This document shows positions 1 to 59,403 of a stretch of 64,000 nucleotides of DNA, one piece after another. A model generated the notes under the pieces. That model saw nothing but the letters and a program-made list of their open reading frames with translations. It was not told the origin of the DNA and ran no database searches. The stretch is taken from the IMG/VR virus record IMGVR_UViG_3300028197_001738, positions 1 through 64,000 of that record; one strand, 5' to 3'. The translations under genes and the position numbers were made by a program. Numbering within the stretch: position 1 is the stretch's first letter; each line of letters opens with the position of its first letter. Source of the stretch: a virus.

Positions 1-1
1 T

Positions 2-253
2 CCACCGCCTCCTCCACCTCCGCCTCCTCCACCGCCTCCTCCACCCACTGCGACAGTTACGCCTACTGTGACAGTTACGCCTACTGTGACAGTTACGCCT
101 ACAGTGACAGTTACGCCTACAGTGACAGTTACGTCTACGGTAACAGTTACTCCTACCACAACTCCAACTCCGTCACCACCATCTTCTGCATATAGAGTGC
201 TAGCGCAAAGAGGAAGAATTGTCCCCAATATATCGAGCAGTATTAATCCTTAA
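2..253 (+). CDS. C-terminal fragment of a Pro/Thr-rich (mucin-like) protein, starts upstream of the window
   Basis: Frame is open from position 2: ~15 Pro, then (TVTPTV)n, ending at TAA 251-253. Confidence 0.75.
   Translation, partial: PPPPPPPPPPPPPPPTATVTPTVTVTPTVTVTPTVTVTPTVTVTSTVTVTPTTTPTPSPPSSAYRVLAQRGRIVPNISSSINP
52..141 (+). repeat. 18-bp tandem repeat, 5 copies (gacagttacgcctacwgt), coding TVTPTV
   Basis: Units read directly at 52, 70, 88, 106 and 124 (the last is degenerate). Confidence 0.9.
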
Positions 254-313
254 CAATGCAAGTCTAGTTGCTTAAAGTATTAAAATGTAAATAATTAAGA
301 GGTTTACGATAGT

Positions 314-330
314 GGTGTATCATTAAATAT
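314..330 (+). promoter_or_regulatory. Putative phage promoter motif GGTGTAT + AT-rich tail
   Basis: GGTGTATCATTAAATA in an intergenic gap; the same core recurs at 3063 and 14373. Confidence 0.5.
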
Positions 331-358
331 GTGGCATTTTACATAATGGAGAAAAAAT

Positions 359-891: not shown

Positions 892-908
892 AATAATGCG
901 AGATTAAA

Positions 909-3040: not shown

Positions 3041-3062
3041 ATCATTTCTTATCTTAGGCATG

Positions 3063-3080
3063 GGTGTATATAATTGTATA
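3063..3080 (+). promoter_or_regulatory. Putative phage promoter motif GGTGTAT
   Basis: GGTGTATATAATTGTATA about 30 nt before the ATG at 3100, followed by an AGGAG SD. Confidence 0.5.
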
Positions 3081-3099: not shown

Positions 3100-3573
3100 A
3101 TGCGTTTTAAGCCAGGCTATAGAACTAGTGAATTTTGGTTTACATTAGTTAGTTTTGTATTTAGTGCTCTGTTTCTGACAGGTATAATCCAAGATAATGG
3201 CACTAAAGAAGAATTAATTAGTGTGGTAACCCATGCTGTCGAGAGTATTATATTGGTAGGGGGTCAAATCATTATTTTTTATAGATATGTCGCTAGTAGA
3301 GATAGACAAAAACGAGAATTCAATTATGACAATGAAAAAGCTATAGAAAGTCATGTCGGGGTTGGCAAGACTTATGATATTATTAATATAAATAATGCGG
3401 ACATAGGAGACCTGATACAATTACCACATATAGGCACAGCTATAGCTCAACGTATTATTGATTATAGATTAACCTATGACGGTTTTAAAGAGATTGAAGA
3501 TATTAAAAAAATAAAAGGTGTGGGCGATTCTATTTATCAAGAAATTAAAAATTTTATATCAATAAAAGGTTAA
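3100..3573 (+). CDS. Two-TM membrane protein fused to a ComEA-type helix-hairpin-helix DNA-binding domain
   Basis: KPGYRTSEFW plus two hydrophobic segments; ININNAD..L..LPHIG..IAQRIIDYR...F..IEDI..IKGVG. Confidence 0.8.
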   Translation: MRFKPGYRTSEFWFTLVSFVFSALFLTGIIQDNGTKEELISVVTHAVESIILVGGQIIIFYRYVASRDRQKREFNYDNEKAIESHVGVGKTYDIININNADIGDLIQLPHIGTAIAQRIIDYRLTYDGFKEIEDIKKIKGVGDSIYQEIKNFISIKG

Positions 3574-4040: not shown

Positions 4041-4427
4041 ATGAATTTTACAGAAACTTTTAATGATTTTAGTGCTAGTCTAGGCCCAATGGATATAGCA
4101 CTATATGGTGGTGTTGGTATAGTTTTATGGGTTTTGTTTAAAGACAAATTAAGCCCCGTTCAAAAAACTGTATTAGATTTATTTAATGGAATAAAATCTA
4201 AAGTTAATATAGATGGTATTTCTGTCATAGATGAAACTGTTTCAGACAAATCAGACGCTAAGCAAAAAGATCTGTTCTTTGACTTAGTAGTATCTTGGAA
4301 ACAAACTAGGGACTTAGCTGTTCGCAGTGGATGCAATAAAGCTGTTGAGGTTGCAGATTCCATGTTTCCTTACTTAAGTCCTACAGTCTGTGGAGACAAT
4401 GAAAAGGTTGACAACAATGCAGAATAA
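4041..4427 (+). CDS. Hypothetical single-TM protein
   Basis: IALYGGVGIVLWVLF; GAGG SD. Confidence 0.65.
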   Translation: MNFTETFNDFSASLGPMDIALYGGVGIVLWVLFKDKLSPVQKTVLDLFNGIKSKVNIDGISVIDETVSDKSDAKQKDLFFDLVVSWKQTRDLAVRSGCNKAVEVADSMFPYLSPTVCGDNEKVDNNAE

Positions 4428-4920
4428 ACTTTTATTAGCAGCTGGTGTTGTTTTAATATTTCTGGGTGTTGTAAAACCTAATTTAAATAATTTATTGCCT
4501 GCAAATTCAAACACAGTATGCTCTGTAGAAAACTTTGTAACAGACGCCCCTGCTGATATTGAATTAATGAATAAGGCCGAAGTTGTTGTTAAAATATTAC
4601 AAGAGTCTGATGATTCAACAAAAAAACAAGACTGTTTAAAATTATCGGCTTTATATTCTGATATGTCTCAATTAATAGAACTAGACGGAGATGATCAGAT
4701 TATTAATAATACTGCGAATATTAGAAAAGCAAACAGTTTAGCTGGTAAAATGCTTAGACTCAATATCAAAGACAAATATCCTAATCTAGCAGAAGCTGCA
4801 CAAGATTTGTTATTTTTTCAATTAGGAAATAAAGACGTTAAACTAGATAAAGAACTTAGATCAAAAGCCATAGAGGCTTTTAGAGCTTTATCCTGGGCTT
4901 TTTATAGAGGTGGTAAATAA
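4417..4920 (+). CDS. Hypothetical secreted/membrane-anchored protein
   Basis: Likely start MQNKLLLAAGVVLIFLGVV (signal/anchor). Confidence 0.65.
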   Translation: MQNKLLLAAGVVLIFLGVVKPNLNNLLPANSNTVCSVENFVTDAPADIELMNKAEVVVKILQESDDSTKKQDCLKLSALYSDMSQLIELDGDDQIINNTANIRKANSLAGKMLRLNIKDKYPNLAEAAQDLLFFQLGNKDVKLDKELRSKAIEAFRALSWAFYRGGK

Positions 4921-4922: not shown

Positions 4923-5849
4923 ATGCCAAGATTTACACCTAATGATCTTTATAATGAATACCGTAAAGGATTTAGTGGATGCTTATGGGAAGAGCATGTA
5001 TTTGAAGAATTAATTACCACTAGTAAGTATGCTTTTTTTAAAGATGGTGCTAAACGAATTAAAAATAGTGGTAAGGGAAAGCTATCAACACCTTTCAAAT
5101 CTGTATTAAAATTTGATAAAAATGCTTATATTGAAAGACAAACCACAGGAGATTGTGTTTCTCACGCGACACGTAATGGGTGCGATGTAACAAGAGCTGT
5201 GGAAATAGATATTAAGGGAGATAGAGAAAGCTGGGTCGCCAGAGGTGCTACAGAAGCAATATATGGAGCAAGAGGTCATGGTGGACAAGGCATGAGCTGT
5301 AGTAGAGCAGCTACATTTGTTAGTAAAACAGGAGGTGTGCTTGTTCGTAAAAATTATCCGGGAGTAGCAAATTTTAGCAAATACAACGGTAATATGGGTG
5401 CTAAATGGGGATCTAGAGGTCTTCCCGACAAAGTAATACAAAAAGCTGATGATCATCAAATCAGAACAGTTTCGTTGATTAAGACAGTAGAAGAAGCTAG
5501 AGACGCACTTGCCAATGGGTATGGTTTAAGTGTGTGTAGTGGTTATGGATTTTCTAATCGTAGAGACTCCAAGGGATTTGCTCGAAAAAGTGGGTCCTGG
5601 AATCACGCTATGTCCTGGACGGCTTGTGACGATACAGGTGATGAACCTGCCTTTCTTGTACAAAATAGCTGGGGTAAATTCAATAGTGGAGGACATCCAG
5701 AATGGGGTCCGATCCCAGATGGTTCTTTTTTAATACATGCAGATATAGCAGCAGGTATGCTTAGACAAAATGGCGCGTATGCTTTTAGCGACTTTAATGG
5801 TTTCCCCCCTCAAAAACTTCCGGACTACGGTTTCGTAGATTACTTATGA
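4923..5849 (+). CDS. Papain-like (C1) cysteine peptidase
   Basis: Q-TTGD-C-VSHA (oxyanion Q, catalytic C), WN-H-AM, Q-N-SWG. Confidence 0.8.
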   Translation: MPRFTPNDLYNEYRKGFSGCLWEEHVFEELITTSKYAFFKDGAKRIKNSGKGKLSTPFKSVLKFDKNAYIERQTTGDCVSHATRNGCDVTRAVEIDIKGDRESWVARGATEAIYGARGHGGQGMSCSRAATFVSKTGGVLVRKNYPGVANFSKYNGNMGAKWGSRGLPDKVIQKADDHQIRTVSLIKTVEEARDALANGYGLSVCSGYGFSNRRDSKGFARKSGSWNHAMSWTACDDTGDEPAFLVQNSWGKFNSGGHPEWGPIPDGSFLIHADIAAGMLRQNGAYAFSDFNGFPPQKLPDYGFVDYL

Positions 5850-6001
5850 AATTTTTAGATAAAATAGCCTTAAACAGATTTATTAAGATAATTACTGATT
5901 TTATACTTTCTATTATGAAAATGTTTCAACATACGAATAATAGTGTAAAACCAGAAAGAAAAAAACCCATCATTGATTTATTGAGGAGATGGATAAAGTG
6001 A
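5846..6001 (+). CDS. Small 51-aa protein missing from the ORF track (MKFLDKIALNRFIKIITDFILSIMKMF...)
   Basis: ATGA overlap with the peptidase stop; fills the gap to the next gene. Confidence 0.6.
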   Translation: MKFLDKIALNRFIKIITDFILSIMKMFQHTNNSVKPERKKPIIDLLRRWIK

Positions 6002-6246
6002 TTAATAAAATATTGTTAAGTACAATTGTGGCCTTGCCTTTAATTTTGGGTCAATCTAATTCAACTCAAACAAAAAGTTATTATAGTACTACTGCTGTGG
6101 TTTCTTTGGTGGGTGGTGTAATCAGTAGTTCTGATCAAGAAAACACAGAAAAGTATAAAAGAGAAGACTGTCCAGTGTGTGAAGGCAAAGGATGGTATAT
6201 GAGTGGCGATGGTATCAAAAAAATAACTTGTCAATATTGTGAATAA
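5989..6246 (+). CDS. Signal-peptide protein with CxxCxGxG zinc-finger-like C-terminus
   Basis: Hydrophobic N-terminus; CPVCEGKG...CQYC; GAGGAG SD. Confidence 0.65.
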   Translation: MDKVINKILLSTIVALPLILGQSNSTQTKSYYSTTAVVSLVGGVISSSDQENTEKYKREDCPVCEGKGWYMSGDGIKKITCQYCE

Positions 6247-6248
6247 GC

Positions 6249-7862
6249 ATGGCATTAGAATTAAATAACTGTAATAGTGCAAATTATAATTTTACGGCAG
6301 ACTGGAATAGTCAAGACGGGAATGTAAGCACGGTAGGATCTAACGGGAAAAGCAGTTATTATGGAACGTATGATCAAGCTGGAAATGTTTGGCAATTATT
6401 AGATTCCTTAAATGGTTCATACCAAGCCCTTAGAGGAGGAGCATATAATAGTATAGATACTAATATATCTAAAAATTATAGAAGTTCACAATATTTAGAT
6501 GCAAAAAGATCAAACCTTGGCTTTAGAATAGCAAAGAAGATAAATAATACAGATTCTTATAGTTCTTTCGTAAGTGTGACAGGAAGTAGTGTTCAAGACT
6601 CTACAACATACGGGGGAGTAGCTTACGATTTTAAACTGCAAACCTATCCAGTGACCAATACAGAATATGTCGAATTCTTAAATACAGTAGCTGTTGATGG
6701 GGCCCCAGGTAAAGAACTGTATCATATCAATATGGGTGTTTTCCCTCACGGAGGCATAGAAAGAAATGGAGAGTTTCCGACTTATACATATTCTATAAAA
6801 ACAGATATGGGGAATAAACCCATTAATTTTATTAATTGGTACTCTGCTGTTAGGTTTATTAACTGGATAAGCAACGGAAAACAAACAGATGTAGATACCA
6901 CAGAATCAGGAGTTTACACATTAAACGGGAATGTAAAAAGTTCTCCTCTTAATAAGAATACATACTGGCTACCAACAGAAAACGAATGGTACAAAGCTGC
7001 TTATTATGATCCCAGTTCTTCCACGTATTCGACTTATGCGACACAATCTAATTCATTACCAGATTCCGTTACTGTAGATTCCACAGGATACGCAGTAGAT
7101 ACAGCAAGCAATCCTGGGATTTGTATTAGTCCGACACCTACTCAGACCCATACTGCGAGTCGAACCCCAACAAATACTAGCACAGCATCTCCAACCCCAA
7201 CAAATACTAGCACATCCACGCAGACTCCCACAGCGACACCTACTAATACGGCAACACAAACTTCTACTGCTTCTACAACACCAACGCCAACTAACACCAA
7301 CACCTCTACTGTGACTCACACTCCTACTCATTCTTCTACAGTAACCCCCACAAGAACTCCTACTAATACTCCAACCGCTACGGCAACTCCAACTATCACC
7401 CCAACAGCTAGTACTACTCCTACAATAACTCCAAGTGTCACTAAATCTCAATGTCCTCAAGAAAAAATAGGTCAATTAATTTTTCAAGATAATATATTTT
7501 TAAATGATGCGATGGATATAGTGTATAAAGGTTTTGTGCTGTCTGGTAAAGTTATAGGACAAAATGTTTCTGTTTCCGAGGCTTTAGATGTTACACCTAC
7601 TACAACTCCTACACAAACACCAACCAATACATCAACTCCTACACAAACTCCGTCCAATACTCCAACAGGCACAACAACACCTACATCAACTCCTACTCCT
7701 ACAAACTCTAGAACACCACAGCAGACAGCGACAAACACCCACACGCCAACAGCCTCAGTCACATCAACACCAACTAATACCGAAACACCCACACCTACAC
7801 CTAGCGCAACAGAAAATTGGACAATTATATATGATGGTGGTGACGCATATGGAAATGTATAG
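6249..7862 (+). CDS. Circularly permuted FGE-sulfatase (SUMF1/CLec-fold) domain plus two Thr/Pro stalks
   Basis: [15 protein letters not shown] and GFRIA precede [21 protein letters not shown] and [12 protein letters not shown]. Confidence 0.8.
7130..7810 (+). repeat. Two Thr/Pro/Asn low-complexity coding tracts (~7130-7440 and ~7590-7810)
   Basis: TPT(N/Q/A)T repeats with degenerate codons. Confidence 0.85.
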
Positions 7863-7892
7863 CTCTATAAACCCAAAAATTTAAGAAATATT

Positions 7893-10800
7893 ATGTCAAA
7901 CACTTCCCTTCAACACAATTTACAACTTGATCCAACTCAGCATGTTATATTTAGCGAAGCTTTTAGGAATGGCGATAAACAACCCTTAAATGGAAGAACA
8001 TACTATAACAATCCCCTGTCTGTAACATTGTATGAAGGCGAAATTGCTAAAATAACAGCGACGGGATTGATAAATTTTAATAATCATTGTGACCCCTATA
8101 CTCCCGATGGTAGTGCTACATGTTCTAGTCAGACCGATATGGTCGGAGGTTCTCCTCCCGGAGCATTATATGGAAGATTAGGTTTAGGAAATATTTTCCG
8201 AATAGGGTCATCTTCTACAATTACTGTATCCAAAACACAAGTTTTACATTTATTTTTAATAGACAGACCAGCAGAAGATAATTCAGGTAGCTGGGATATT
8301 ACAGTAGATATTTCTAGTCTTCGAGCTGCTCGTAGAGATGAACAAAACTGTTTTAATAAATTAGATTCAGATTTGCCCCAAGGTTTAAATTGTTGTTCAT
8401 TCATACAAACAGCCCTTCCTAATAGTGCTAATTATGGTAAGAATGCCAATTGGAAAGGTAGTGTTAATTCAAGCCTGCCTTTCGTTTCAGGTAATATAAC
8501 GACTGTGGGCAGTAATGGAGGAGCTAGTTATTACGGAACGCGAGATCAAACAGGGAATGTTGCAGAGATTAACGACGCATATATAGTTGATCCTGTCGGA
8601 GGTGACTCTAGAGGTCTTAGAGGAGGATCTTTTGCAGAACAAATACAGTTTATTTCAAAATCTCATAGAGGGTCCGTGCCTGTTCAAGATGCAGGAGAAT
8701 TTAGTAGCGACATAGGATTTAGATTATCTTCTCCGTATGACGAAGGGGTGTATAGATTCCATAATCAATTTTTGCCTGTTCTTAATTCTGGAAATACCGC
8801 AGACTCTACGAGCTATGGGAATGTTGATTATAATTATTATATCACCAAATTCCCGATTAGTAATACTGAATATGTGCAATTCCTTAATACAGTGGATCCA
8901 AGCGGAGATAATCAGCAGGATTTATTTAAGTCATCTACTCAAAATTTTTATAGAGGCATATCTAACACAGGAACAGTAAGTGGTTCGATATACGGATGTG
9001 ATGTAAATATGGATTTCAAGCCAGTGAATTTGGTAGACTGGTTTAATGCTGCTAGATTTGCTAACTGGTTACATAATAAAGTTTCTATCGGCCCTGATGT
9101 TACTGGGGACGCAGCTACAGAAGATGGAGCTTATACTTTAAATGGCCTTAACAGCGGTGTTGTTTATGCTAATGCTGACGCAAAATACAGAATACCAACT
9201 GAAGATGAATGGTATAAAGCGGCTTATTATGATGGTTCTGTAGATAGTTATTGGAAATATGCGACACAAACCAATGACGACCCAGAACAAGTTTGTGCTA
9301 GTAACGCAGGAGATGGAGGACAGTGCGATCCTCTACCAACTCCAACAGCAACGCCGACGAGTACAGTAACCCCAACAAATACAGCTACCGCTGGTCCTAC
9401 TCCTACACAAACAGCTACAGCTACAGTTACTCCAACAAACACCGCTTCTGCTACAGCGACACCTACTAACACCCCTACTAACACCGTTACTCCAACTAAC
9501 ACTCCTACTTCATCTGTAACTCCTACTCAAACAGCTTCAGCAACAGCTACGACCACAGCTGTTCCTACGGCCACAGCTTCTGTGACACCGACACAAACAC
9601 CAACAAATACTCCTACAAATTCAGTTACTCCTACACAAACAGCTTCAGCAACAGCTACATCTACCACTACTGCCACTCCAACACAAACGCCAACAAATAC
9701 TCCTACTAATTCAGTAACTCCTACCACAACCCCAACAAATACGGCAACTACTACTGCCACGGCCACCACAACACACACTCCAACTAATACTCAAACACCA
9801 ACGAACACACCAACAAATAGTGTGACTCCTACTCAAACACCAACTAATACTGTTACTCCTTCTTCGACAAACACTAGTACTCCCACTCCCACAGCGACAA
9901 CAACGGGTACGGCTACTCCTTCTCCCACAGTCACTAGTACTGTCACTCCAAGTAACACTCAAACGAATACAGCAACTTTAACAGCTACTCCCACTAATTC
10001 CGCAACCCCTACTCAAACGCCAACGAACACGCCAACGCAAACTAATACGGCTAGCCCCAACAGCACACCAACGCTTACGACGACGAACACTCCGACCAAC
10101 ACCTTAACTCAGATGTTCTTCACTCCTACCCCAACGAATACCCCATCGAACACAGCTACTGTTACGCCAACAGCTACTACTACAGCAACAGCTACGCCTA
10201 CAAGTACCACAGAAGCAACAGCAACCCCTACAACAACACAGACAGCAACTGTCACGCCAACCTCATCAGTAACACCTACTATAACCCCTACAACAACTCA
10301 GACTCCAACCAATAGTCCAACCTCTTCTGTAACCCCAACGATAACTCCAACTAGTACTATAACTCCGAGTATTACTCCTACGATCACTCCTTCTGTAAGT
10401 GTCCTTGGGGACACGAACAACATGCAATTAGTTGTTGAAGTCGTTGACGCAGCAGTAACTAGTCAATCAACTCTAACAGTGCTTCTAGACCCAACTGATA
10501 CCTGTGTTATTAATTGGGGAGATGGTGAAGTGGAATATGTCACTAACGAACAACCATCAGTTTACACTCATACCTATTCGGCTAATGGAGTTTATAGAGC
10601 GTCAATTGTAAACCCAATTCAAAGAATAAGTTTTTATGGTTCGGTTGTATTGACCCATGTTTTGAGCTGGGGTAATTCTCCCGAATTAGGAAAATATCCA
10701 GGCTATGGAATGTTTGAACAATGTATAAATTTAGTAGGAGTCCCATCAATATTTCCCGCTAATCTTGTATTCGCATCATATATGTTTGCTGGTTGTAGAA

Positions 10801-11612
10801 AATTGGGCTCGATACCTATAGATCTTAGTGGATGGGACACAACAAGCATAGGTACTGCTGACTCAATGTTCAAAGGATGTATTTCTCTTGGTATGTATAG
10901 TCCTGTTGGTATTCAATATTGGAATTTACCATATCTCGCTGATGCATCCAGTATGTTTCAAGGATGTTTCTCTTTAAATGAATCTATATCCTGGAACCTT
11001 CCTAGTTTGTCAAAAGTAGACAACATGTTCAATAGCTGCAACCTGCTAAATAGCGATATCTCTATGCAGAACATGACTAATCTAAGTAATATTTATGCTA
11101 TGTTTATGGATTGTACTAGTCTTAATAGCAGCATTAATGTAAACACAGCGAACGCAACGTCAATGAGATACATGTTCTACAATTGTAATAGTTTAAATCA
11201 AAATTTAGCAGCAACTATGTCATTCGGCAAACTTGGACAAGGGGATGTTGCTACAAGATCTTGCTCGCTAGAAGGTTTCGCTGGAGGCGCAACAAAACTT
11301 ACTGGTGCCAACTACGATGGACTCTTGCAAGAGTGGAATGATAGTACTTATCCAGTAACTTTCACGAATGTAGATATGGGCCGATCCACTCCTAGCGTTG
11401 GCGCTGGTCAAAACGATAAAATCAGTCTTATTGATAAAGGCTGGACTATATTTGACGGAGAAAACCTCAATTTAAATCCTTCAGCACCTTCAGAGTGTGA
11501 ATTGGATACGCCATTTTATAGTGTGCCACCTCCACCTCCACAACTGCCACCGCCACCTCCACAACTGCCACCGCCTCCACCGCCGCCACCGCCGCCTCCA
11601 CCGCCATATTAG
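7893..11612 (+). CDS. Multidomain adhesin: PA-IL/LecA-like lectin, permuted FGE/CLec domain, long Thr/Pro stalk, PKD-like domain, BspA/DUF285 repeats, poly-Pro tail
   Basis: [11 protein letters not shown]...DNSGSW; [23 protein letters not shown] before [12 protein letters not shown]; INWGDG; repeated ..MF..C..LN; terminal Pro run. Confidence 0.8.
9335..10400 (+). repeat. ~350-codon Thr/Pro/Ala mucin-like tract
   Basis: [18 protein letters not shown] and VTPT units. Confidence 0.9.
11526..11606 (+). repeat. Poly-proline tail including two 21-bp PPPPPQL units
   Basis: ccacctccacctccacaactg / ccaccgccacctccacaactg followed by a Pro run. Confidence 0.9.
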
Positions 11613-11619
11613 GAGTTTA

Positions 11620-12021
11620 ATGATGAACAATAAACAAATCGTAGAAAATTTAACCAAAAAAATATACGACAATATGGGCTATAATTCAGATTTAGACAAA
11701 GCAGGAAGCATACTTATTATACTAGCTTTAGCTGGTATAACTTTATCATTAATTAGAATAATACAAGAATGTAATAGCAACAAACTATCTAAGATGACAG
11801 AAGAAGAACAAACTCAGTTCTTGCAAAGTAGAATCAAAACTTTGTGCTCTAAGAATACTTGGATTAGTAAGTGGAGATTAAACAAGATTGTTAAGAGACA
11901 TTTATCAACAGAAGAGTACAAAATGTTTGGTAAAAAAGCAACGGACGCGATAATTAAGTCAGGGAAGAATATAGAATATAAAGAGTGTCATGCTTTAATG
12001 GGAGAATCAAATAATGTTTAG
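11620..12021 (+). CDS. Hypothetical single-TM protein
   Basis: AGGAG SD at 11611 places the start at 11620; SILIILALAGITLSLI. Confidence 0.7.
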   Translation: MMNNKQIVENLTKKIYDNMGYNSDLDKAGSILIILALAGITLSLIRIIQECNSNKLSKMTEEEQTQFLQSRIKTLCSKNTWISKWRLNKIVKRHLSTEEYKMFGKKATDAIIKSGKNIEYKECHALMGESNNV

Positions 12022-12262
12022 TATAATTATATGGTGTGTATATGGTATATTCGTAGGAGCTATTGCTAAAAGTATCGTTCCTGGAGAAGAAAATTTTGGT
12101 TTTTTTAAGACTATAGCACTAGGAGTAGCGGGCTCATATTGTGGAGGCGCAGTATTATATATGCTTGGCGAATATTCAGCAGTAGAGCCAGCTGGTATTT
12201 TTATGGGAATAGCAGGTTCTGTTTTAAGCTTAGTGTTATATAATAAATTAACGACTAAGTAA
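12014..12262 (+). CDS. GlsB/YeaQ/YmgE (transglycosylase-associated) membrane protein
   Basis: IIWC.YGI.VGAIAK.I.PG...G...TI.LGVAGS..GG...G.F.GIAGS, three TMs, 82 aa. Confidence 0.8.
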   Translation: MFSIIIWCVYGIFVGAIAKSIVPGEENFGFFKTIALGVAGSYCGGAVLYMLGEYSAVEPAGIFMGIAGSVLSLVLYNKLTTK

Positions 12263-12281
12263 AAAACAACAAGGTCCATAA

Positions 12282-13889
12282 ATGCTTCCAAAAAATTTTG
12301 ATTGGGAATATTATATTTCTGCCAATCATGACCTACAAAAAGCTGGTATTCAGGACGAAACTTCTGCTATCAAACACTGGTTAGAAAATGGCTATAAAGA
12401 AAATCGTAAGTATTGCGGTTCGAAAAATACTCTGTCTCTGATCGTAGCATGTAAAGACCGAGTATACAATTTGGTCGAAGCATTAAATTCTTGGCTAGAA
12501 ATAGATAGAATTACAGAATGTATAATTGTAGATTATAATTCGAGTCCATCTGTATTAGAAAATGAATACTTTGAGTCTTTAAAAAATAATAGTAAAATTA
12601 AAATTGTTAGAGTTGTTAATAAAGAAAGATTTAATCTGGGGCAAGCATATAATATTGCAATAGATTACTGTAACAATAGAAATATATTAAAAATAGATGC
12701 TGATCATATATGTAAAGATTCTAGTTTTTTAGATTATTTTGTAGAACCCTATGTTCATACATGCTTTCTTCATGGAGACCACATTTTTTGTGATAGTGGT
12801 CTTTCTGGATTTTGCCTTTTCCCTAAAGAAGCGAATGTTTATTATAGAGAAGACCTAAATGCGTGGGGTCATGATGATTTAGATTTCTACAATCGTCTTA
12901 GGCAAAAACCTCATCCTTACGACCCAAAACAAAAATTGAAAGAAGTTATATTTTTTAATATTGACAAGTATATAGAACACAAGCCCCATGCAACAGATAC
13001 TCATTATTATCAAAACAAACACAAAAATAACCATTTAAATAAATCACTATGTTTAATTAATCCTTATTTAGAACCATTAAGACAAGAATATAAATTAAAT
13101 AATAACGAAGAAATTATTTTTAATAATAAAAAAACTATAGATAAAATTTATTGTATTAATCTTGAGCACAGGACGGATAGATGGCAAAACTGTAATAACA
13201 TAACAAATATAGAACGTTTCGATGCTGTTAATACTAGTGATGTTACGGATCAATATATTCAAAACGGGTTAACTTACAAACCTATCGATACGGAAGTAGC
13301 CATATATTTTTATGTACATTCTGGAGCCTATGGAGCATATTTAAGTCATTACTTATTATGGCAGAAAATAGTTGCCAGTGATGTAGACTATGCTTTGGTA
13401 TTAGAAGACGACATAGAGTTAAGTAGTGTTACAAATTTTTTAGACTCTAATCTTTTAATCGAAGAGTATGATTTTATACAACTTTCTAAAAAAATTAGAT
13501 TTGATATATATAACAACGCAATATTTGACGGTGCAGAATCGTATATTATATCTAACAAAGGAGCAAACACGCTATTGTCCTTAACTCATTCTCCATTTTT
13601 ATTTGACAAGTTGGGCGTAAACAAGTATAATAATGCAAACTATGTCGATTCTGTGTCTAATAATTATCGATGGTCAGAACAACCAGCCATCACTTGTCCC
13701 GTAGATAAGTTTATGGGGTATGCTTGTCAGACGGGGTTATTAAAATTTTTCTTGTATCCAACTATTAATATAGATAAAGAATTGTCAAAAAAATCGAACA
13801 TAGCAATAGAAGGTAGTATTAATGCTTGGAATTTTGATTATAATACTATTAAGCATTATTCTAAATTGATTGGAAACATAAATGAGTAG
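12282..13889 (+). CDS. Fused glycosyltransferase: GT-A (GT2/GT7-like) plus GT25
   Basis: IIVDYNS, FNLGQAYN, KIDAD, WGHDDLDF; then IYCINL..R.DRW, RFDAV, G.YLSH..LW, LVLEDD. Confidence 0.85.
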   Translation: MLPKNFDWEYYISANHDLQKAGIQDETSAIKHWLENGYKENRKYCGSKNTLSLIVACKDRVYNLVEALNSWLEIDRITECIIVDYNSSPSVLENEYFESLKNNSKIKIVRVVNKERFNLGQAYNIAIDYCNNRNILKIDADHICKDSSFLDYFVEPYVHTCFLHGDHIFCDSGLSGFCLFPKEANVYYREDLNAWGHDDLDFYNRLRQKPHPYDPKQKLKEVIFFNIDKYIEHKPHATDTHYYQNKHKNNHLNKSLCLINPYLEPLRQEYKLNNNEEIIFNNKKTIDKIYCINLEHRTDRWQNCNNITNIERFDAVNTSDVTDQYIQNGLTYKPIDTEVAIYFYVHSGAYGAYLSHYLLWQKIVASDVDYALVLEDDIELSSVTNFLDSNLLIEEYDFIQLSKKIRFDIYNNAIFDGAESYIISNKGANTLLSLTHSPFLFDKLGVNKYNNANYVDSVSNNYRWSEQPAITCPVDKFMGYACQTGLLKFFLYPTINIDKELSKKSNIAIEGSINAWNFDYNTIKHYSKLIGNINE

Positions 13890-14340
13890 GCCGGATTGGA
13901 CAGATTATTTTTTAGGATTAGCCAAAGTTGTTTCACAGAGGAGTCACGACATACACACTAAGCATGGCTGCGTAATTACAGATCAACAGCATAGAATATT
14001 AGGAGTTGGCTACAATGGCTTTCCAAAAGGCATGGATGATGGATCTCTTCCTACTTCTCGTCCAGAAAAATATCGCTGGATGATTCATGCAGAAAGAAAT
14101 GCATTGTCTAATTGCGTCATTCGTCCAGACAATGGGATTGCTTACATAACAGGACAATGTTGCAATGACTGTATCATGTCTTTGTGGCAAGAAGGCGTTA
14201 CTCATATTGTTATGTCTGACACTCACGGGACTCATTTGTTTGATGAGAGAGAACAAAACATTTTCGATTTATTTGTAAAACAAACAGGTATTAAAATTTC
14301 AAAATGTACACCAAATTTATCTTGGATAAAAAAAATATAG
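13882..14340 (+). CDS. dCMP deaminase
   Basis: RPDW..YF..LA..VS.RS, GYNG.P.G, HAE.NA, CNDC zinc motif. Confidence 0.92.
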   Translation: MSRPDWTDYFLGLAKVVSQRSHDIHTKHGCVITDQQHRILGVGYNGFPKGMDDGSLPTSRPEKYRWMIHAERNALSNCVIRPDNGIAYITGQCCNDCIMSLWQEGVTHIVMSDTHGTHLFDEREQNIFDLFVKQTGIKISKCTPNLSWIKKI

Positions 14341-14372
14341 TTAGCTAAAAGAATTTTTGGGGATTACCGGAT

Positions 14373-14388
14373 GGTGTATAATTAATAC
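14373..14388 (+). promoter_or_regulatory. Putative promoter GGTGTATAATTAATA upstream of the RNR gene
   Basis: Third intergenic copy of the motif; contains TATAAT. Confidence 0.55.
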
Positions 14389-14494
14389 AATCAATACTTT
14401 ATTCGGCCCTTGTCTACTCTAACAAATGATTTATCATATCTATGACAGAATCAATCTTCATTTCGGGCCTTACAGATATTTTTAAGGAGTCAGT

Positions 14495-34190: not shown

Positions 34191-35044
34191 AATCATTACC
34201 TGTAGCTAATATAGTCAATAGTCTAATATATCAAGATAATTTTAATATCGTTTATGATAGTCATGGAAGCTTATTTGATCTGATTATAAAATCTATGGAC
34301 TTTGCCATACACGACGCAGATATTGCTCATTCGGATATGTGGTATCATTCATTTTTAACTAATAATCCTATAAATTTCACAAATAAATATATGAACACAG
34401 CTATATCTTCTCATTTAAATACATTGGCGATTTTTCATGATGGAGTACCTCCTCAACTCAAAAAAGAGGATGTAATGATATTGCAAAATCAAATTAAAAA
34501 TTCAATTAAGATATTAACAGATGGATCTTTAGCGAGTCAGTGGCTTCCGTCAGATGACAAATGGTATACTGTTAATTATGGCATTCCCTATATAGATCAT
34601 GAGGAAGAAGACAGGACAATAGATTGTATCTTATTTAATTTTAGACAAAATAATAATATCACATCATTATTTGACAATATTAAGAAGTCTATCCCTAATA
34701 GTATGATGATGAATGAGTTACCCAAGAGTTTGGAGGAATTATATTCCATACTAGATAAAACTAAAATTTGTATTGATTTCGACAATCGTATAAATTCCTT
34801 AGTTGCAGCATCAAGGGGATGTTTTAATATAACTTCCTATGAGAACACTTTAATAGGATATTACGAAAGAATTAATTCTACAGAAAGTATTGATCAACTT
34901 ATCCTAAATTGTTTGCAACAGATAGATAAAGACAAGACTATTGAACAAATTAATTTTATAAAACAGCACTATTCGTTTGATATATTTGCAGAAAATTTAA
35001 CAAAGATAATTTCGCATATTTCTAAAGAGGTATTTTTATTATGA
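34187..35044 (+). CDS. Divergent GT-B-like protein
   Basis: VNYGIP, L.KTKI.I...SLVAASRGC..IT, FIKQHYSFDIF..NL. Confidence 0.5.
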   Translation: MKSLPVANIVNSLIYQDNFNIVYDSHGSLFDLIIKSMDFAIHDADIAHSDMWYHSFLTNNPINFTNKYMNTAISSHLNTLAIFHDGVPPQLKKEDVMILQNQIKNSIKILTDGSLASQWLPSDDKWYTVNYGIPYIDHEEEDRTIDCILFNFRQNNNITSLFDNIKKSIPNSMMMNELPKSLEELYSILDKTKICIDFDNRINSLVAASRGCFNITSYENTLIGYYERINSTESIDQLILNCLQQIDKDKTIEQINFIKQHYSFDIFAENLTKIISHISKEVFLL

Positions 35045-35457
35045 GAAGAAGCATAAATATTATATGTGATGACTACCGCAATATAGCAGAGGGGTTTGAG
35101 TCAGTCCATATATCTTCTATTAGTAATTTGGTAGATTTTTCTATAGACACTATATTGTATTATAACATAGGTTATTCTCAAAAAGTTGAATCTAAAAAGA
35201 ATTTGCAAGTACTGTCTAATAAACTACGACCTGGAGGATCTATGGTTGTGAAATTTACTAATCTCGATCTGATATGTAAAAACTATTTAGATAAAAAAAT
35301 AAAAAACAATGAATTAATTGACGCTATTAAACATATTAATACCGGGATGTCTGTAGACGAAATGTTTACATTTATAAATAATGATTCTCTAAGAATAACA
35401 AAAATAGCTAAAGAAAATAATGATATTTCTATGGTAGTTACTAAGGTTAGAGTATGA
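35041..35457 (+). CDS. Truncated/degenerate class I methyltransferase-like protein
   Basis: SIDTI...L..L..KLRPGGSMVV. Confidence 0.45.
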   Translation: MRRSINIICDDYRNIAEGFESVHISSISNLVDFSIDTILYYNIGYSQKVESKKNLQVLSNKLRPGGSMVVKFTNLDLICKNYLDKKIKNNELIDAIKHINTGMSVDEMFTFINNDSLRITKIAKENNDISMVVTKVRV

Positions 35458-36239
35458 CAAATAAAACAATAGGAACAGACTGTTCTAGATGCCACTTTTC
35501 ATCACCCATTACTGAAAACAATAACTGTGAATTTAATATTATTGACAATATTAAAGACATTAAAGAGGTAACAGAAAAAAACGGATATTATTACGTCAAC
35601 AACTATAGTTGTGCGTACGCTTTCCCTAAAGACAAAATTAAAGAATTACTAGAACCATTTCCAGATTTAGATGTAGTGGAATATTCTAAATACAGAAGGT
35701 ATGTAAAATATTATTTGATTATAAACAATATGGACAGTAAAGAAGGAATTGATTATATATGTGAACAGATTAATAAATTAACGATAAAACCACAAGCGAT
35801 ATCTATATTAGTTAAATCCACAGATATGGTTAGCCTTATCGAAGAATGCAACGAAAAAATAAATCATGTTGATGACATGGTATGGAGACTACATAATTTT
35901 AAAAATAAAGACATATCAGAATCAATGGCTATGCACACTGTGTTAAGCACAAGTTCTCATTTAAAGAAATGTCATTTTATTTGGTCTTTAAACGACACAG
36001 ATTTATTATATTCTGCCGATAACAAGCTGATAGAGAATATTAATTTTATTGCAAATGTTATTCAGCCTCCAGTGGGTATACTTAAATCTAAAAAATCAAA
36101 TAATTATCATAGCAATATTTTCATTACTAAAAGCAATTACCAAAATCTAATTAGTCAATTATCTCAAGATCTTGACAAAGCCATTCAAATGTTTCTAGAA
36201 GAAGAACCGGAAGCAGAAATAACTATTTATGATGATTAA
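35454..36239 (+). CDS. Hypothetical protein with Cys-rich N-terminus and possible degenerate GT-A fold
   Basis: CSRC..C..C; I..LTIKPQ.I.I. Confidence 0.45.
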   Translation: MTNKTIGTDCSRCHFSSPITENNNCEFNIIDNIKDIKEVTEKNGYYYVNNYSCAYAFPKDKIKELLEPFPDLDVVEYSKYRRYVKYYLIINNMDSKEGIDYICEQINKLTIKPQAISILVKSTDMVSLIEECNEKINHVDDMVWRLHNFKNKDISESMAMHTVLSTSSHLKKCHFIWSLNDTDLLYSADNKLIENINFIANVIQPPVGILKSKKSNNYHSNIFITKSNYQNLISQLSQDLDKAIQMFLEEEPEAEITIYDD

Positions 36240-36915
36240 TGCTCTTATAATAGCATCTGAAATCACCAAAGGCATGAAATCTCTAGGTTCGAGATCGATG
36301 CTTAATATCAATTCAAAGAATAAAATTATTGATCAACAAATATCTTCTATCAAAACTATTCACAGAAATGCAGAAATTACCATTTCTTGTGGTTTTGAAT
36401 ATGAAAAAATAAATAATTATATTAACAAAAGATATAAAAACATTCAATTAATACATAATAAAGACTATGAAACAACCAATGAAGCCAGAGATATAGAATT
36501 ATTTTTAATCGATAAAAAACCTGATGATATAGATTATTTGTTTATAATCAGCGGTGGCGTTTTATTAAAAAAGAAGGCTATCTCTTTTACTAAAATCAAA
36601 AAGTCCTCAAGAATTTTTTTAATGAGAAGTGTAAAAAATAATTTTAAATTGGGGTGTTCAAAAAAAGATAATATAGAGTATGTGTTTTATGACTTAGACA
36701 TACCTTGGTGTGAGTGCTTATTATTGAATAAAGAAAGTGTTATTAAATTAAAATCTTTTATACAAGGAAACAACGTATTAAATATGTATTTGTTTGAAAT
36801 GTTGAACAGCATACTCACAATAGACGATATCCAACCGTGCTATATTAATAAAAATGACATAATGAAAATTACAAGTTTTGCAGATATAACTAGGGCTAAA
36901 AGTTTTATAACATGA
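36229..36915 (+). CDS. Degenerate NTP-sugar/choline nucleotidyltransferase-like (LicC/GlmU fold)
   Basis: ALIIAS...KGMKSLG..SML.I..IIDQQI..GFEYEKI..NKDYETTN; canonical G.G.R motif altered. Confidence 0.6.
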   Translation: MMINALIIASEITKGMKSLGSRSMLNINSKNKIIDQQISSIKTIHRNAEITISCGFEYEKINNYINKRYKNIQLIHNKDYETTNEARDIELFLIDKKPDDIDYLFIISGGVLLKKKAISFTKIKKSSRIFLMRSVKNNFKLGCSKKDNIEYVFYDLDIPWCECLLLNKESVIKLKSFIQGNNVLNMYLFEMLNSILTIDDIQPCYINKNDIMKITSFADITRAKSFIT

Positions 36916-37619
36916 AAAAAATATTTATAGAATCGATAAACAATAAACTGTTTACAAACCTGAGAATAATTAAAGACAATATACAAATATTTAATGGCAA
37001 CTTAGGTAACAATATATATCAAATATTTTATAAAACTAAATTTGATTCGATAATTATAGCATCAGTTATTAACGAAAGTATAGTCCAGTTTGCAGAAGAG
37101 TTTAAAGATAAAAAAGTATACATATACGATCAAAATAGATCGCTAGATCAAAATATAATAGACAACAACAAGTCTATAGATTTTATCTTGCCATCAAACA
37201 ACAAAACCAATAAACAAGGCAATAGACTAAACATAAACACAAATATGATAAACGATCAGTTGCTACAAAATACTGATGGCTCTAAGCAAAACTATATATC
37301 ATGCTTTTTAGACAGCGTACAAATATTACCACAAGAACTAAATTCAGAACTTTATCCAAACTCGCACAAAAAAATTAAAATGTTTAACAATGTAAAAATA
37401 CAACATCCTCAAAATCTTGGGATAATAACAGAAAGAGAACGGCTTAAAATTCTATCTGAGTCAGAATATTATTTAAATTTAGACGATCAATATGTTATAG
37501 AGGCTGCTATCAATGGATGTAAAATTCTTAGCCTAGAATCTTTGTCAAAATTAAAGCCTATGGATTACGACATCCCTGAATATGAAACATATCAAAACTT
37601 TATTAAGGAATACATATGA
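36912..37619 (+). CDS. Divergent GT-B C-terminal-like protein
   Basis: NLGII.E.E..KILSESEYYL..YVIEAAINGCKIL. Confidence 0.45.
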   Translation: MKKIFIESINNKLFTNLRIIKDNIQIFNGNLGNNIYQIFYKTKFDSIIIASVINESIVQFAEEFKDKKVYIYDQNRSLDQNIIDNNKSIDFILPSNNKTNKQGNRLNINTNMINDQLLQNTDGSKQNYISCFLDSVQILPQELNSELYPNSHKKIKMFNNVKIQHPQNLGIITERERLKILSESEYYLNLDDQYVIEAAINGCKILSLESLSKLKPMDYDIPEYETYQNFIKEYI

Positions 37620-38092
37620 GAGAACTACCAGATATAGGAGTAGTATTATTAAATCTGGATAATAGTCCTGTTTACTCTTTAATTTTAAAAAATTTATCAA
37701 CAATGGCTAGTAAACTACCATACAACCAAGTTGTAGTCTTTTCTAGTTCTTGCACTATCGCAGACACTCAACATGTCCCAGTTCTGCATATAAGTCACGC
37801 TAAATTCTTCCGTGGTATTTTAATACATATCGATGTAAGCGGTTTGATTATTAGTCAGAATTTCCCTAATCTTACTGATAGATATTTATTTGCTTTTGAC
37901 ACCCCTTGGGTTGGTCAAGAAGTAGGGTATAAACAGTGGAAAAGTCTTTTTATAGATAATAATTTAAAAATAATTAGTGCTAATGTTAGTATAGATAATA
38001 TATATAATTTGTGTTGGAAAGAACCATCAGGAATAGCGGAGGATTTTAATCATGAAAGAATACTCGACATTATCGAAAAAACAAAAAGTTGA
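37616..38092 (+). CDS. Hypothetical protein, possible GT N-terminal-like fragment
   Basis: ATGA overlap; alternating beta/alpha pattern. Confidence 0.45.
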   Translation: MRELPDIGVVLLNLDNSPVYSLILKNLSTMASKLPYNQVVVFSSSCTIADTQHVPVLHISHAKFFRGILIHIDVSGLIISQNFPNLTDRYLFAFDTPWVGQEVGYKQWKSLFIDNNLKIISANVSIDNIYNLCWKEPSGIAEDFNHERILDIIEKTKS

Positions 38093-38843
38093 TCTTATAG
38101 ACAAGCTTTATGTTAAAGAAAATAAAAGTTTTGCTGATATAGCAAAAATTTATGGAACATATCCCAATAAAATACTGAGAGACGCGAAGTCTTTTAATGT
38201 GCCTATTCGGACCAAGTCTGAAGCTCAAAAGAACGCACTTAAAACAGGTAAGCACAGACATCCGACCAAGGGGAAGGAAAGATCAGAAGACATTAAAAAC
38301 AAAATAGGTAAAAGCGTAATGAGTGCTTGGGAAAATTTAACAGAATCTGAGTTAAATGATAGAAAAACAAAAGCTCAAGAGAATTGGAGTAAATTAACAG
38401 AAGATAAAAAACTGTCTATTCAAAAATCTGCTACAGATGCTGTTAGATTAGCAAGCAAACTGGGTTCAAAGTTAGAACACTATTTATTAAGAAAACTTAT
38501 AGATAGCGGCTATGCTGTAGACTTTCACAAAGAGCACACTTTGGTAAATACAAAATTGCAGATTGACCTTTTTGTTAGAGACAATAATATAGCAATAGAA
38601 GTCGATGGCCCTTCTCACTTTGCTCCCGTGTGGGGTGAAGAAGTGCTAAAAAGGAATATTGCTTATGATCAAAAAAAAGAAGGACTAATTATAGGCAAGG
38701 GATGGCACTTGATAAGAGTGCAACAGCAAAAAGACTTTTCAAAAACAAGAGCCGACTTTCTTTTCGAAAAATTAAGAAATGCAATTGTTCAAATCATAGA
38801 TTCAAATTCGGATACTGTACTATCGCTAACTATAGAGGATTAA
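38052..38843 (+). CDS. HTH + NUMOD3-like + Vsr/DUF559 endonuclease (homing-endonuclease-like)
   Basis: SFADIAKIYG; KGKERSEDIKNKI; QIDLF..IAIEVDGPSH..DQKK..GW.LIR. Confidence 0.75.
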   Translation: MKEYSTLSKKQKVDLIDKLYVKENKSFADIAKIYGTYPNKILRDAKSFNVPIRTKSEAQKNALKTGKHRHPTKGKERSEDIKNKIGKSVMSAWENLTESELNDRKTKAQENWSKLTEDKKLSIQKSATDAVRLASKLGSKLEHYLLRKLIDSGYAVDFHKEHTLVNTKLQIDLFVRDNNIAIEVDGPSHFAPVWGEEVLKRNIAYDQKKEGLIIGKGWHLIRVQQQKDFSKTRADFLFEKLRNAIVQIIDSNSDTVLSLTIED

Positions 38844-56320: not shown

Positions 56321-56334
56321 ATCATTTTTAATTC

Positions 56335-59300
56335 CTATGTAATTGGAGCAGTATTTCTAGCCCTGTACTTAATAATTACTATGCCGCTTCCTCCGGTGGC
56401 TGAAGCTCCTCCTGCTCCTCCAGTATTTGCTGCTCCAGGCGCTCTTCTAGAACCACCTCCGCTGGATGCTCCTCCTCCACAAGAACCTCCTTCTCCGTCT
56501 CCTCCTCCGCCTCCTCCGAATTGATTACTATTTATACATCCATCTGCTATGTCTACGGTTAAACCAGCACCACCATTACCTCCTCTTGTCTGACATCCTG
56601 AGTTGCAACTGCCCCAACCTGCTCCAGCTCCTCCTCCTCCTCCTATGCCTGCTCCTCCTCCACCAGCAATGCAACTGCCGGAACCAAAAGCAGCACCGGT
56701 GTAACCCTGAAGACAGCCATCATTATTACTTAGTGGTCCGCCGTATTTTGCACCGTTCAATTCTATGCAATCACTAGTTCCGTTAGGGTATGTAGTTGGG
56801 TCAGCTGCTATTTGAGCTGCTGTTAGAATAATGAGATCATCAGGATTCTTGCCGCAATCATATTCTTCTGTTGCTCCCCATGGAGCTTGAATCAAGCCAG
56901 CGCCAGGATATCTGCATCCCTGACCACCACCACTTGCTCCTCTACTACCAGGGAAAGCTGTGTTGCCCCTTAATTCTCCACTTCCACCAAAACCACCACC
57001 ACGAGCAACCAGCACCCTTTTTTTTACAGCGTCTCCATCAGGCTGATCTCCTGTTTGACTTGTTGTTTTGTATCTAATTATAACTATTCCGCTTGCTCCG
57101 CTAGCCCAAGGACCACCTCCACCCCCACCAGTATTAGGTGTTCCGTTTGTTTGAGCCGTCGCACCATACCCTGTTCGACCAGGTTTATAGCTTTGTCCAC
57201 CACCTCCGCCATTTCCTTCGGCTGGGGTGTTGTTATATTGTCCAGTATAGAACAAACCAGCCCAGAAGCCTGTTAGACGACCTCCTTGTGCCTCATTGCC
57301 TCTACCTCCGCCTCCTACTCCTCTTAGGTAATAAGCGTTGTCTCCTACACCTTGAGGGCTTCCGCCTCCTCCACCGCCATACCATTGTGTTGTTCCAGAT
57401 ATATCGGTTCCGTATGAAGATCCCCCATCTCCTCCTTTATTATGCCAGGCTGGGCCGCTTCCTTGAGTTGGGTCCCAAGATAGACTACCTCTTCCGGAGA
57501 TACCGGCTCCAGTAGCCCCTCCTCCTCCACCGCCCGACACGGTAGAAGAACCAGATTCAGAATATCCTTGAGGACCTCCAGCAAAACCTTCGCCAGAATC
57601 TCCTCCTTCATTAGCAGATCCAGGACTACCTCCATTAGCTTCTATAATCAATGAGTTTCCTGAGATAGATGAATTAGATCCACTTTGCTTATATATGCCT
57701 CCATCACCAATAACAATATTATATTGCCCTGTAGATGGGAAAATTATATCTCGTTGATGCTTAACACCACCGCTGCCTCCTCCTCCACCAATTAATGATT
57801 CATTTGGTGATCTTCCAGCTCCTCCGCCACCCCCAACAACTAGAATATCAAATTTTGCATCAGCGGGCAAGCTGCCAATGCCGAATGTTCCATTTTGTTT
57901 AAAGGTATGTATGGTATATTCTCCAACAGTAGTTTTTTCTCCACCATTAGCAAATATTTCTGTGTCTGGAGCATCTGGGTCTTGTGGCTCAGGAGCAGCG
58001 CCATTATAGAATATACTACTGTTCTTACCCCTAGCTCCAGGGGCTCCGCCATCTCCAACATGTATGTCGTAAACTCCAGCTCCATCTGCACCATTTTGAT
58101 TTAAAGAATAAGATGTTCTTAATGCAGCTCCTCCTGATCCTCCTCCACCAGCAGCTCTATTTACTGGGCCGCTTCCGCCGCCTCCACCACCTCCCATTAA
58201 GAAGACATCGAAAACAGCGTCATTATCTATAGTATTAATCGTAAAGGTATCATCATTTGTAAAGATATGAACATTATAATCTCCTTGAGTACACAATGTG
58301 CCACCAGTGGCATCGACGTTAGGAACTCTAGCTCTACATACCTGTAGTTCTCCTATCCAATTCCCTGATGTTGCAGCAACGGACTCCCAAGCATTTGTCA
58401 CATCGTTCCATGCCCAATGAAATTGAGCTCCAGGATTAGGATAATTTGTTTGATTAACAAACAACCCACACTTTGCCATACTATCAATAAGGCAAATTTC
58501 TACATTGTTTTCAGCTTCTATTTGTCTGATTTTGTTAATAGTTATTTGATCAAGTCTTACGGTAGCTGTTCCATTTTGTGTATCTAAACCATATCTAGCA
58601 GCAATCTTTTCTGGAGCACAAAAGTACAGAGAAAAACCTGGAGTATGACTTGGTGTCGGTGTTGGGGTGTGAGTATTAGTTGCCGTAGGAGTTGCTGTAG
58701 CCGTAGCAGTAGGAGTTGCTGTTGCTGTAGCTGTGGGAGTAGCTGTTCCTGTTGCTGTTGCTGTGGCTGTTGCAGTAGGGGTTGCTGTTGCTGTTTCTGT
58801 AGCAGTATTAGTCACAGCAGGAGTGTGTGTATTAGTTGGCGTTATACTAGGAGTAGGAGTATTTGTAGGTGTTTCTGTTTGCGTAGGAGTTGGTGTTTTT
58901 GTTGGCGTTCTACTAGCAGTAGCAGTAGGAGTACTAAAAGCTGTTGCTGTGTTCGTTGGAGTAGGGGTATTACTTGCAGTATTAGACGGAGTAACAGTAT
59001 TAGTAGGAGTTATAGTAGGAGTGACGCTATTAGTAGGAGTAGGACTAGCTGTAGCCGTTGTAGTAGGTGTAGCCGTTGTAGTAGTAGTAGGTGTATTAGT
59101 TGGGGTTTTAGTTGGTGTGACTGTAGGAGTAGGAGTTGGACATAAGTAAACAGTGTTTTGTGAATAAACATCTCCATTAAAGTTATTGGTAGTTATAACT
59201 TCAAGCAAAACCAAATTTACATGTTGACTTTTTCTCAATAAAAAAGGAACAGTTTTCTTATTAGAATTAGCGGTAAAAGTAACTGTATCTCTATCTATTT

Positions 59301-59403
59301 CAGCGAATTCATCATAAGTGTTTCTTAGCTTAACCTTAACAGTATATTCATTTCCTACAATAAGATCTTCTAGATCAATATTTATAATGTCTGTTGTTAT
59401 CAT
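56335..59403 (-). CDS. Fibre-like protein: Thr/Pro stalk plus two glycine-rich domains
   Basis: TPT repeats; two copies of Y..H.F...TF..FD.L..GGGG.G and GSG.VII(R/K)Y. Confidence 0.8.
58640..59140 (-). repeat. Thr/Pro/Ala mucin-like coding tract
   Basis: [10 protein letters not shown]...TATATATPT. Confidence 0.9.

Follow-up and report, generated by a model that had tools for sequence, protein, structure and literature searches.

Threonine/proline stalks on tail-region proteins of a marine phage and their co-occurrence with GT60-family glycosyltransferases in other phage genomes

The window analysed here, positions 1 to 64,000 of IMG/VR virus record IMGVR_UViG_3300028197_001738, is the first 64 kb of a 95,663-bp contig (CheckV completeness 66%, G+C ~35%) from a marine, uncultured, siphophage-like phage of about 145 kb, and it encodes tail-region proteins with long threonine/proline (PT) tracts, hereafter called stalks. 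On balance, we consider it probable that these stalks are glycosylated, by an enzyme other than the glycosyltransferases (GTs) that were first proposed for this role. A sequence-only reading of the window had suggested that the phage O-glycosylates its own fibres; comparison across genomes favours glycosylation of the stalks, but not by the enzymes named in that reading. The enzymes visible beside the stalks are not those that track them, and the contig ends short of the likely key gene.

In the explanation that we favour, the PT tracts would form extended, uncharged (X-Thr)n stalks that keep interchangeable modules for carbohydrate binding (FGE/C-type-lectin fold, leucine-rich repeats of the BspA type, a glycine-rich domain) at a distance from the tail, and they would be the most likely acceptors for cytoplasmic mucin-type O-glycosylation. 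A soluble phage transferase of the GT60 family would act on the stalks and start the glycan on their Thr residues, and variable accessory GTs would extend it, a GT2+GT25 fusion encoded at 12282 being a candidate extender. We give about even chances to the broader proposal that many tailed phages, among them this marine lineage, jumbo phages unrelated to it and phages of Xanthomonas and Stenotrophomonas in culture, carry out cytoplasmic mucin-type O-glycosylation with enzymes of their own, a soluble GT60 starting glycans on the (X-Thr)n stalks of tail adhesins and variable accessory GTs extending them into a glycocalyx-like fringe of the virion. If true, environmental phages would commonly carry a mucin-like modification that is regarded as typical of eukaryotes, with a bearing on adsorption, protease resistance, sticking to mucus or marine gels and antibody recognition of therapeutic phages.

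Thr/Pro stalks on proteins of the tail module

PT tracts of 68-363 residues each were found in four open reading frames (ORFs). One of them, at 2-205 (+), lies in an ORF (2-253) that is truncated at its 5' end by the contig start, and consists of poly-Pro followed by TVTPTV (TV/TP) repeats with an 18-nt unit in six copies (92% match). The others are located at 7119-7466 and 7572-7826 (+; ORF 6249-7862, stalk protein 1), at 9327-10415 (+; ORF 7893-11612, stalk protein 2), which is the longest tract with 363 aa, and at 58624-59163 (-; ORF 56335-59403, stalk protein 3). Thr accounted for 41-45% and Pro for 16-19% of the tract residues, compared to a proteome background of 6.1% and 4.0%, respectively; Thr dominates, the share of Ser being only 6-12%. 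The longest tract contains 3 charged residues among 363, and the spacing between prolines is even in 55 of 56 intervals, indicating a strict (X-Thr)n alternation and not a random mix. The DNA that encodes the tracts is made up of degenerate tandem repeats, whose periods are 18, 30, 60 and 90 nt. The tracts are thus Thr-rich, Pro-containing and low in charge, as GT60-type mucin glycosylation requires of its acceptors.

Translation and domain searches confirmed that the tracts in the four ORFs lie between lectin- or adhesin-type domains, as the sequence-only reading had stated. The flanking domains matched the FGE-sulfatase/C-type-lectin fold (E 1e-18 and 3e-15), DUF285/BspA leucine-rich repeats (2e-22) and Gly_rich_2 (7e-13). 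Stalk protein 1 (6249-7862, +) has an N-terminal FGE/C-type-lectin-fold module followed by its two tracts, which are separated by a conserved module of ~40 aa. Stalk protein 2 (7893-11612, +) combines an N-terminal domain, an FGE/lectin fold, the 363-aa tract, DUF285 repeats and a poly-Pro C-terminal tail, while stalk protein 3 (56335-59403, -) consists of an 87-aa N-terminal domain, the PT tract and a large glycine-rich domain, and occupies a variable slot of the tail module. A hydrophobicity scan revealed no signal peptide or membrane segment in the stalk proteins or the GTs (maximum KD19 <= 1.5), which agrees with the earlier statement that the stalk proteins lack a signal peptide.

For the comparison with related phages, a DnaE protein search retrieved 148 related IMG/VR stretches, and eleven whole relative records of 82-244 kb were taken, eight of which are at least 91% complete (G000 denotes the contig of this phage, and G001-G016 label related IMG/VR records). 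PT tracts in relatives link FGE, DUF285, DUF642 and PA-IL lectin modules. In the stalk-free G007, the lectin module of stalk protein 1 was found in a 315-aa protein without a stalk. The module between the tracts of stalk protein 1 (7467-7571, aa 406-441) is non-repetitive, has recognisable counterparts in PT proteins of G005, G004 and G002, and may be an anchoring or oligomerisation element. Long Gly/Pro-rich tracts, which may be collagen-like, also occur in the stalk-bearing G003, G001 and G005 (157-534 aa in total).

All large ORFs from 95.5 kb down to 40.3 kb are on the minus strand. They begin with a 4757-aa tape measure ORF (72100-86373, outside the window), a 1187-aa protein and an 819-aa protein with a minor-tail-protein match, and continue with Ig/FN3-repeat paralogues, which are followed by stalk protein 3, by a protein of 648 aa and finally by two giant proteins (2169 and 2524 aa). 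The stretch from 40270 to 63880 (-), downstream of the tape measure ORF, represents the tail-fibre/baseplate region. Where this phage has stalk protein 3, between the Ig-repeat proteins and the protein of 648 aa, relatives encode other PT proteins, and homologues of stalk proteins 1 and 2 (50% identity) occupy this tail-module slot in G004 and G002, which argues for interchangeable tail-region adhesins and not for a capsid coat. The term 'coat' of the sequence-only reading could therefore not be upheld, as the stalk proteins belong to the tail-fibre region downstream of the tape measure gene. Overall, the data support a view of the stalk proteins as soluble components of the virion tail module with a modular, adhesin-type build. 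A PHROGs search with nine ORFs upstream of the tape measure gene returned nothing informative, and no capsid or tail-tube gene was recognised among them.

GT60 and stalks across phage genomes

PT tracts were present in G001-G005, G013 and this phage, and absent from G006, G007, G008 and G009, which do not carry any other Ser/Thr-rich tract either; G016, a fragment (58% complete) of the phage also represented by G013, had almost none. A search with the Pfam profile PF11397 recovered GT60 at full length (431-448 aa, E 1e-58 to 1e-65) from each of the five complete relatives with stalks and none from the stalk-free G006 and G007 (complete) and G009, while the stalk-free G008 only had a 319-aa ORF matching the C-terminal half of the profile. 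Stalks were found in 12 of 12 complete GT60 genomes versus 0 of 3 complete relatives without a full-length GT60. The 319-aa ORF, which may be a remnant or a distinct short form, covers profile positions 199-350 only (E 3e-34) and is found in G008 (63090-63494) and in G010 (107857-108261), which is also stalk-free.

In the reciprocal test, the motif TPTxTPT was found in 24 of 25 further GT60 records, including all seven complete ones, while the reversed-pattern control gave 0-1 matches. At least 120 IMG/VR stretches contain the exact motif TPTNTPTNT; among the 49 parent contigs searched (median completeness ~22%), which represent other lineages, 17 carried a full-length GT60 and one carried the core GT4 of this lineage (see below). 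A PT tract was located within 6 kb of GT60 in 30 of 80 loci, compared to 1 of 80 DnaE control loci. GT60-type glycosylation requires that enzyme and acceptor occur together, and across these genomes they do.

Among 50,697 deposited phage records, only four (0.008%) contained GT60, namely those of XacN1, Xoo-sp13, RAS14 and CM1. Three of these were examined (XacN1, RAS14 and Xoo-sp13), each with 22-51 motif matches and long (X-T)n tracts, while five cultured control phages without GT60 had no stalks at all. In XacN1, the (X-T)n tracts are part of large proteins adjoining the tail sheath genes, and the GT60 homologue is ORF334, listed by the authors as one of two GTs; the virions contain at least two glycoproteins that stain with periodic acid-Schiff (PMC5852040). 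XacN1 thereby resembles what we propose for the marine phage in enzyme, tracts and virion glycoproteins; it differs in being an unrelated 385-kb myovirus, and its authors drew no link from the glycoproteins to PT tracts or GT60 (PMC5852040). All four phages are cultured, so that the proposal is testable now. Our literature search found no description of a phage GT60-stalk system.

The enzyme of the relatives belongs to the same Pfam family as the polypeptide alpha-GlcNAc transferases of CAZy family GT60, such as TcOGNT-2 of T. cruzi and Gnt2 of Dictyostelium, which add alpha-GlcNAc to Thr-rich mucin peptides, a core that is then extended by galactosyltransferases (PMC3769586). Protist mucins and stalks are both Thr-rich, nearly uncharged acceptors (PMC3769586), and a GT25 gene lies beside GT60 in some of the phage relatives: it directly follows GT60 in G004, where the cassette consists of an HtrL-like gene, GT60 and GT25, and adjoins it in G014 and G003. 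However, the protist enzymes reside in the Golgi membrane, whereas the phage form, recognised from gene sequence and lying off this contig, is soluble (as seen for that of G004) and would work in the cytoplasm of the bacterium; the strict (X-Thr)n alternation of the phage acceptor is also unlike protist mucins. A search of the PDB sequences with the G004 enzyme gave no match.

Phage particles are usually treated as unglycosylated, the mycobacteriophages being the one worked-out exception. In these phages, according to Freeman et al. 2023 (Cell Host Microbe) as cited in later papers, phage-encoded cytoplasmic GTs modify the phage's own virion proteins, the acceptors being capsid and tail-tube subunits, with GTs of other families and an actinobacterial host (PMC11256854, PMC12582341). 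Unlike in mycobacteriophages, the acceptors proposed here would be long stalks on the tail adhesins of a marine phage.

Two further genes were observed around GT60. A conserved 432-aa protein with a weak HtrL_YibB match is encoded immediately upstream of GT60 in 70 of 80 loci (L304:9-1307 in G004) and could be a partner enzyme in the pathway. In the cultured jumbo phages, a 765-aa gene annotated as carbamoyl transferase follows GT60 (219791-222088 in XacN1, 223218-225515 in Xoo-sp13), which hints at a carbamoylated glycan.

In a phylogeny built from DnaE and GT4, this phage and all other stalk-bearing genomes grouped in one clade (100/100 support), and this phage nested inside the clade with stalks and GT60 (94/93 and 100/100). 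In each of the five complete relatives of the same clade, GT60 precedes the homologue of ORF 3100-3573 by 17-27 kb, which places the expected position of GT60 in this phage upstream, beyond the 5' start of the contig. From gene order and phylogeny, we infer that the phage carries GT60 on the unassembled third of its genome. An exact 39-mer scan of viral contigs for an upstream extension found nothing, and the metagenome contigs yielded a single 3-kb contig that reached only ~140 nt past the window start.

Glycosyltransferases of the contig and competing explanations

The GTs named in the sequence-only reading were the GT2+GT25 fusion and a block of genes at 31563-38092. The fusion was confirmed at 12282-13889 (+) as a soluble protein of a GT2 (GT-A) and a GT25 domain with intact DAD and EDD motifs, and its stop codon overlaps the start of the dCMP deaminase gene. 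It is specific to this strain, an IMG/VR search for relatives of the fusion finding none, and is part of a hypervariable island that is flanked by a conserved gene (4923-5849) on one side and the gene for dCMP deaminase on the other. The block starts with the core GT4 (31563-33221, +; 552 aa), which has an intact EX7E motif and a Cys4 insertion and is kept in every relative. It is followed by a diverged GT-B-fold protein without EX7E (33222-34190, +; AlphaFold2 pLDDT 84), whose best Foldseek match was the chlorovirus GT 3oy2 (E 6e-10) and whose orthologue in stalk-free relatives is a canonical GT4 of ~380 aa, and by a compact GT-B-fold protein (34187-35044, +; pLDDT 89) closest to SenB, TarM, SdgB and GtfA. 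Profile searches of these two genes against PDB sequences gave nothing and folding alone resolved them; according to their alignment-based AlphaFold2 models, compared by Foldseek, both are GT-B folds. Pfam, PHROGs and NCBIfam were almost silent on the block genes from 33222 to 38092. Among the five remaining genes (35041-38092, +), the ORF at 36229-36915 showed a weak likeness to sugar-1-phosphate nucleotidylyltransferase (3e-5), the other four had no family match, and an Atlas search with 35454-36239 gave no usable match. The 'many glycosyltransferases' of the earlier reading are thus partly borne out for the block, which holds three GT-B folds, one a GT4 by sequence and two recognised by structure.

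Several side observations concern this block. The Cys4 insertion of the core GT4 comprises the invariant C275, C278, C293 and C296, and the protein also has a C-terminal extension of ~120 aa. Distant homologues of the core GT4 in the cultured siphophages S-CBS4 and TJE1 adjoin methyltransferase genes, near portal and terminase genes, with a galactosyltransferase beside the homologue in S-CBS4 and a nucleotidyltransferase in TJE1. The HNH endonuclease gene at the end of the block (38052-38843) is present in 10 of 11 relatives at 54-61% identity, unusually stable for a homing-type gene.

The GT4 block was syntenic in 11 of 11 relatives, stalk-bearing or stalk-free, with 45-63% identity and an invariant EX7E motif and Cys4 insertion. 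Counts of GT2, GT4 and GT25 were the same in stalk-bearing and stalk-free genomes (3-7 in both; one PF00535 match counted in G005 is the GT60 ORF itself), and the hypervariable island contained GTs and stalks in two genomes, only GTs in two or three, only stalks in two and neither in four. Because the block occurs in all relatives and the contents of the island assort independently, the named GT genes are independent of the stalks. Such independence had been given beforehand as an outcome that would speak against the sequence-only proposal, and for these genes it does: with the block also kept in stalk-free relatives, equal GT counts and a strain-specific fusion, we no longer regard the named GTs as the stalk enzymes. 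The core GT4 operon (31563-38092) would have an acceptor shared by the whole lineage and shows no tie to the stalks.

The sequence-only reading had drawn on GtfA/GtfB, the enzymes that glycosylate serine-rich-repeat adhesins, proposing in effect that the GT4 and its diverged GT-B partner (31563-34190) start stalk glycosylation in a similar way, with help from the fusion. Part of this analogy holds, as a GT4 with intact EX7E adjoins a diverged GT-B partner, both are soluble and cytoplasmic, and a repetitive adhesin would be the acceptor. Also in its favour, the phage encodes three soluble GT-B proteins side by side, GtfA, SdgB and TarM are among the structural neighbours, NCBIfam gave a weak match to GtfA (1.4e-5), and the block is found in every stalk-bearing genome. 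However, the acceptor here is Thr/Pro-rich and not Ser-rich, the enzyme pair does not co-vary with stalks but is equally kept in the four stalk-free relatives (the complete G006 and G007, and G008 and G009), which also lack any other Ser/Thr-rich tract, and the fusion is unique to this phage, which makes this version improbable. We find it more improbable still that the GTs serve a hypermodification of phage DNA like that of T4 or RB69 and do not act on proteins at all. In favour of this, the block comes after the DnaE and ssb genes, the fusion gene and that for dCMP deaminase overlap, and there is a dNMP kinase gene at 25043-25639; in known DNA-arabinosylation clusters, GT-B enzymes similar to BshA/MshA are accompanied by a nucleotidyltransferase and by a dNMP kinase (PMC13326640). 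Yet no thymidylate-synthase homologue (PF00303) was found on the contig or in the 11 relatives, and seven of eight near-complete relatives encode a canonical ThyX, indicating an ordinary dTMP supply; there was no C5 DNA methylase match and no Tet/JBP match, the latter in a search without a positive control. As no route to a glycosylatable base turned up, the DNA-modification reading was set aside.

A stronger alternative, possible although we hold it rather unlikely, is that the PT tracts are spacers without any modification, acting as semi-rigid linkers of a polyproline-II-like kind that determine how far the lectin modules extend, and that the GTs act elsewhere. As expected of interdomain Pro-Thr linkers, domains flank each tract and the stalk is optional among homologues, as seen for the lectin module of G007. 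Such linkers are known from bacterial glycoside hydrolases, for example CenA and Cex of Cellulomonas fimi, in which an alternating PT 'box' is extended and is glycosylated in the native host. There, as in the phage proteins, the box joins a binding module to another domain; CenA and Cex are secreted and modified outside the cytoplasm, whereas the tracts here reach 363 aa and are part of phage tail proteins. That the stalks evolve as degenerate tandem repeats and that the named GTs are distributed independently of them also fits spacers. Unmodified spacers would, however, leave unexplained why the rare GT60 is accompanied by stalks in 12 of 12 complete genomes, why the same pairing recurs in unrelated jumbo phages and in cultured Xanthomonas and Stenotrophomonas phages, and why XacN1 virions contain glycoproteins.

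Glycosylation of the stalks by a GT60 enzyme, which we prefer, has to be weighed against the following points, two of which, the contig and the small viruses without GT60, also speak for spacers. PT linkers of bacterial enzymes work unglycosylated too. Neither the 95.7-kb contig nor that of the nearest relative, G013, contains GT60; both are 66% complete, and the link in this phage therefore rests on phylogenetic bracketing. Within the lineage, the stalks and GT60 define one clade and so represent no more than one or two independent events. Three small PT-motif records (27-31 kb, 91-95% complete) lack GT60, and PT tracts can therefore exist without it. As for the candidate extender, the GT25 domain of the fusion had no close homologue beside GT60, and a homologue of its N-terminal domain was found in 6 of 80 loci. 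Lastly, the glycoprotein bands of XacN1 were not assigned to proteins (PMC5852040).

Sampling of the phage and other genes of the window

A megablast search against deposited phages found no close relative of the contig, and the best identity of its DnaE to cultured phages was at most 36%. The same phage (at least 99% identity) was detected in three independent marine studies, with contigs of four marine runs placed on 5800-14400. PT tracts split short-read contigs and the joints there are cross-mapping artefacts, so that length polymorphism of the stalks is not readable from them. Poly-proline runs were observed at 1-45 (contig start), at 11524-11609 (C-terminus of stalk protein 2) and in a 434-aa protein that lies beyond the window (G000 90204-91508, -). 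The CCN-rich DNA encoding them is subject to heavy cross-mapping by sequences of other organisms (with a word depth of 4363 in one run) and is probably the cause of the contig break.

A tail-fibre-like protein without a PT tract (909-2840, +) has an Mtd_N N-terminus (6e-15), also matched by tail fibre PHROGs, and four DUF285 repeats (9.5e-91). The Mtd_N and FGE proteins were considered as targets of a diversity-generating retroelement, a reading that was rejected because a reverse transcriptase (PF00078) had no match on the incomplete, 66%-complete contig. The Ig/FN3-repeat proteins are three adjacent paralogues (59443-63880, -) with weak PhoD_N and Pur_ac_phosph_N matches, and the copy number of their Ig/FN3-like modules differs among relatives. 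The conserved gene that borders the hypervariable island (4923-5849) encodes a 308-aa protein without a Pfam, PHROG or NCBIfam match that is 65-87% identical in the ten relatives covering the region, placing it among the most conserved genes. It is preceded by three small proteins with N-terminal hydrophobic segments (3100-3573, 4041-4427 and 4390-4920), which could form a lysis cassette.

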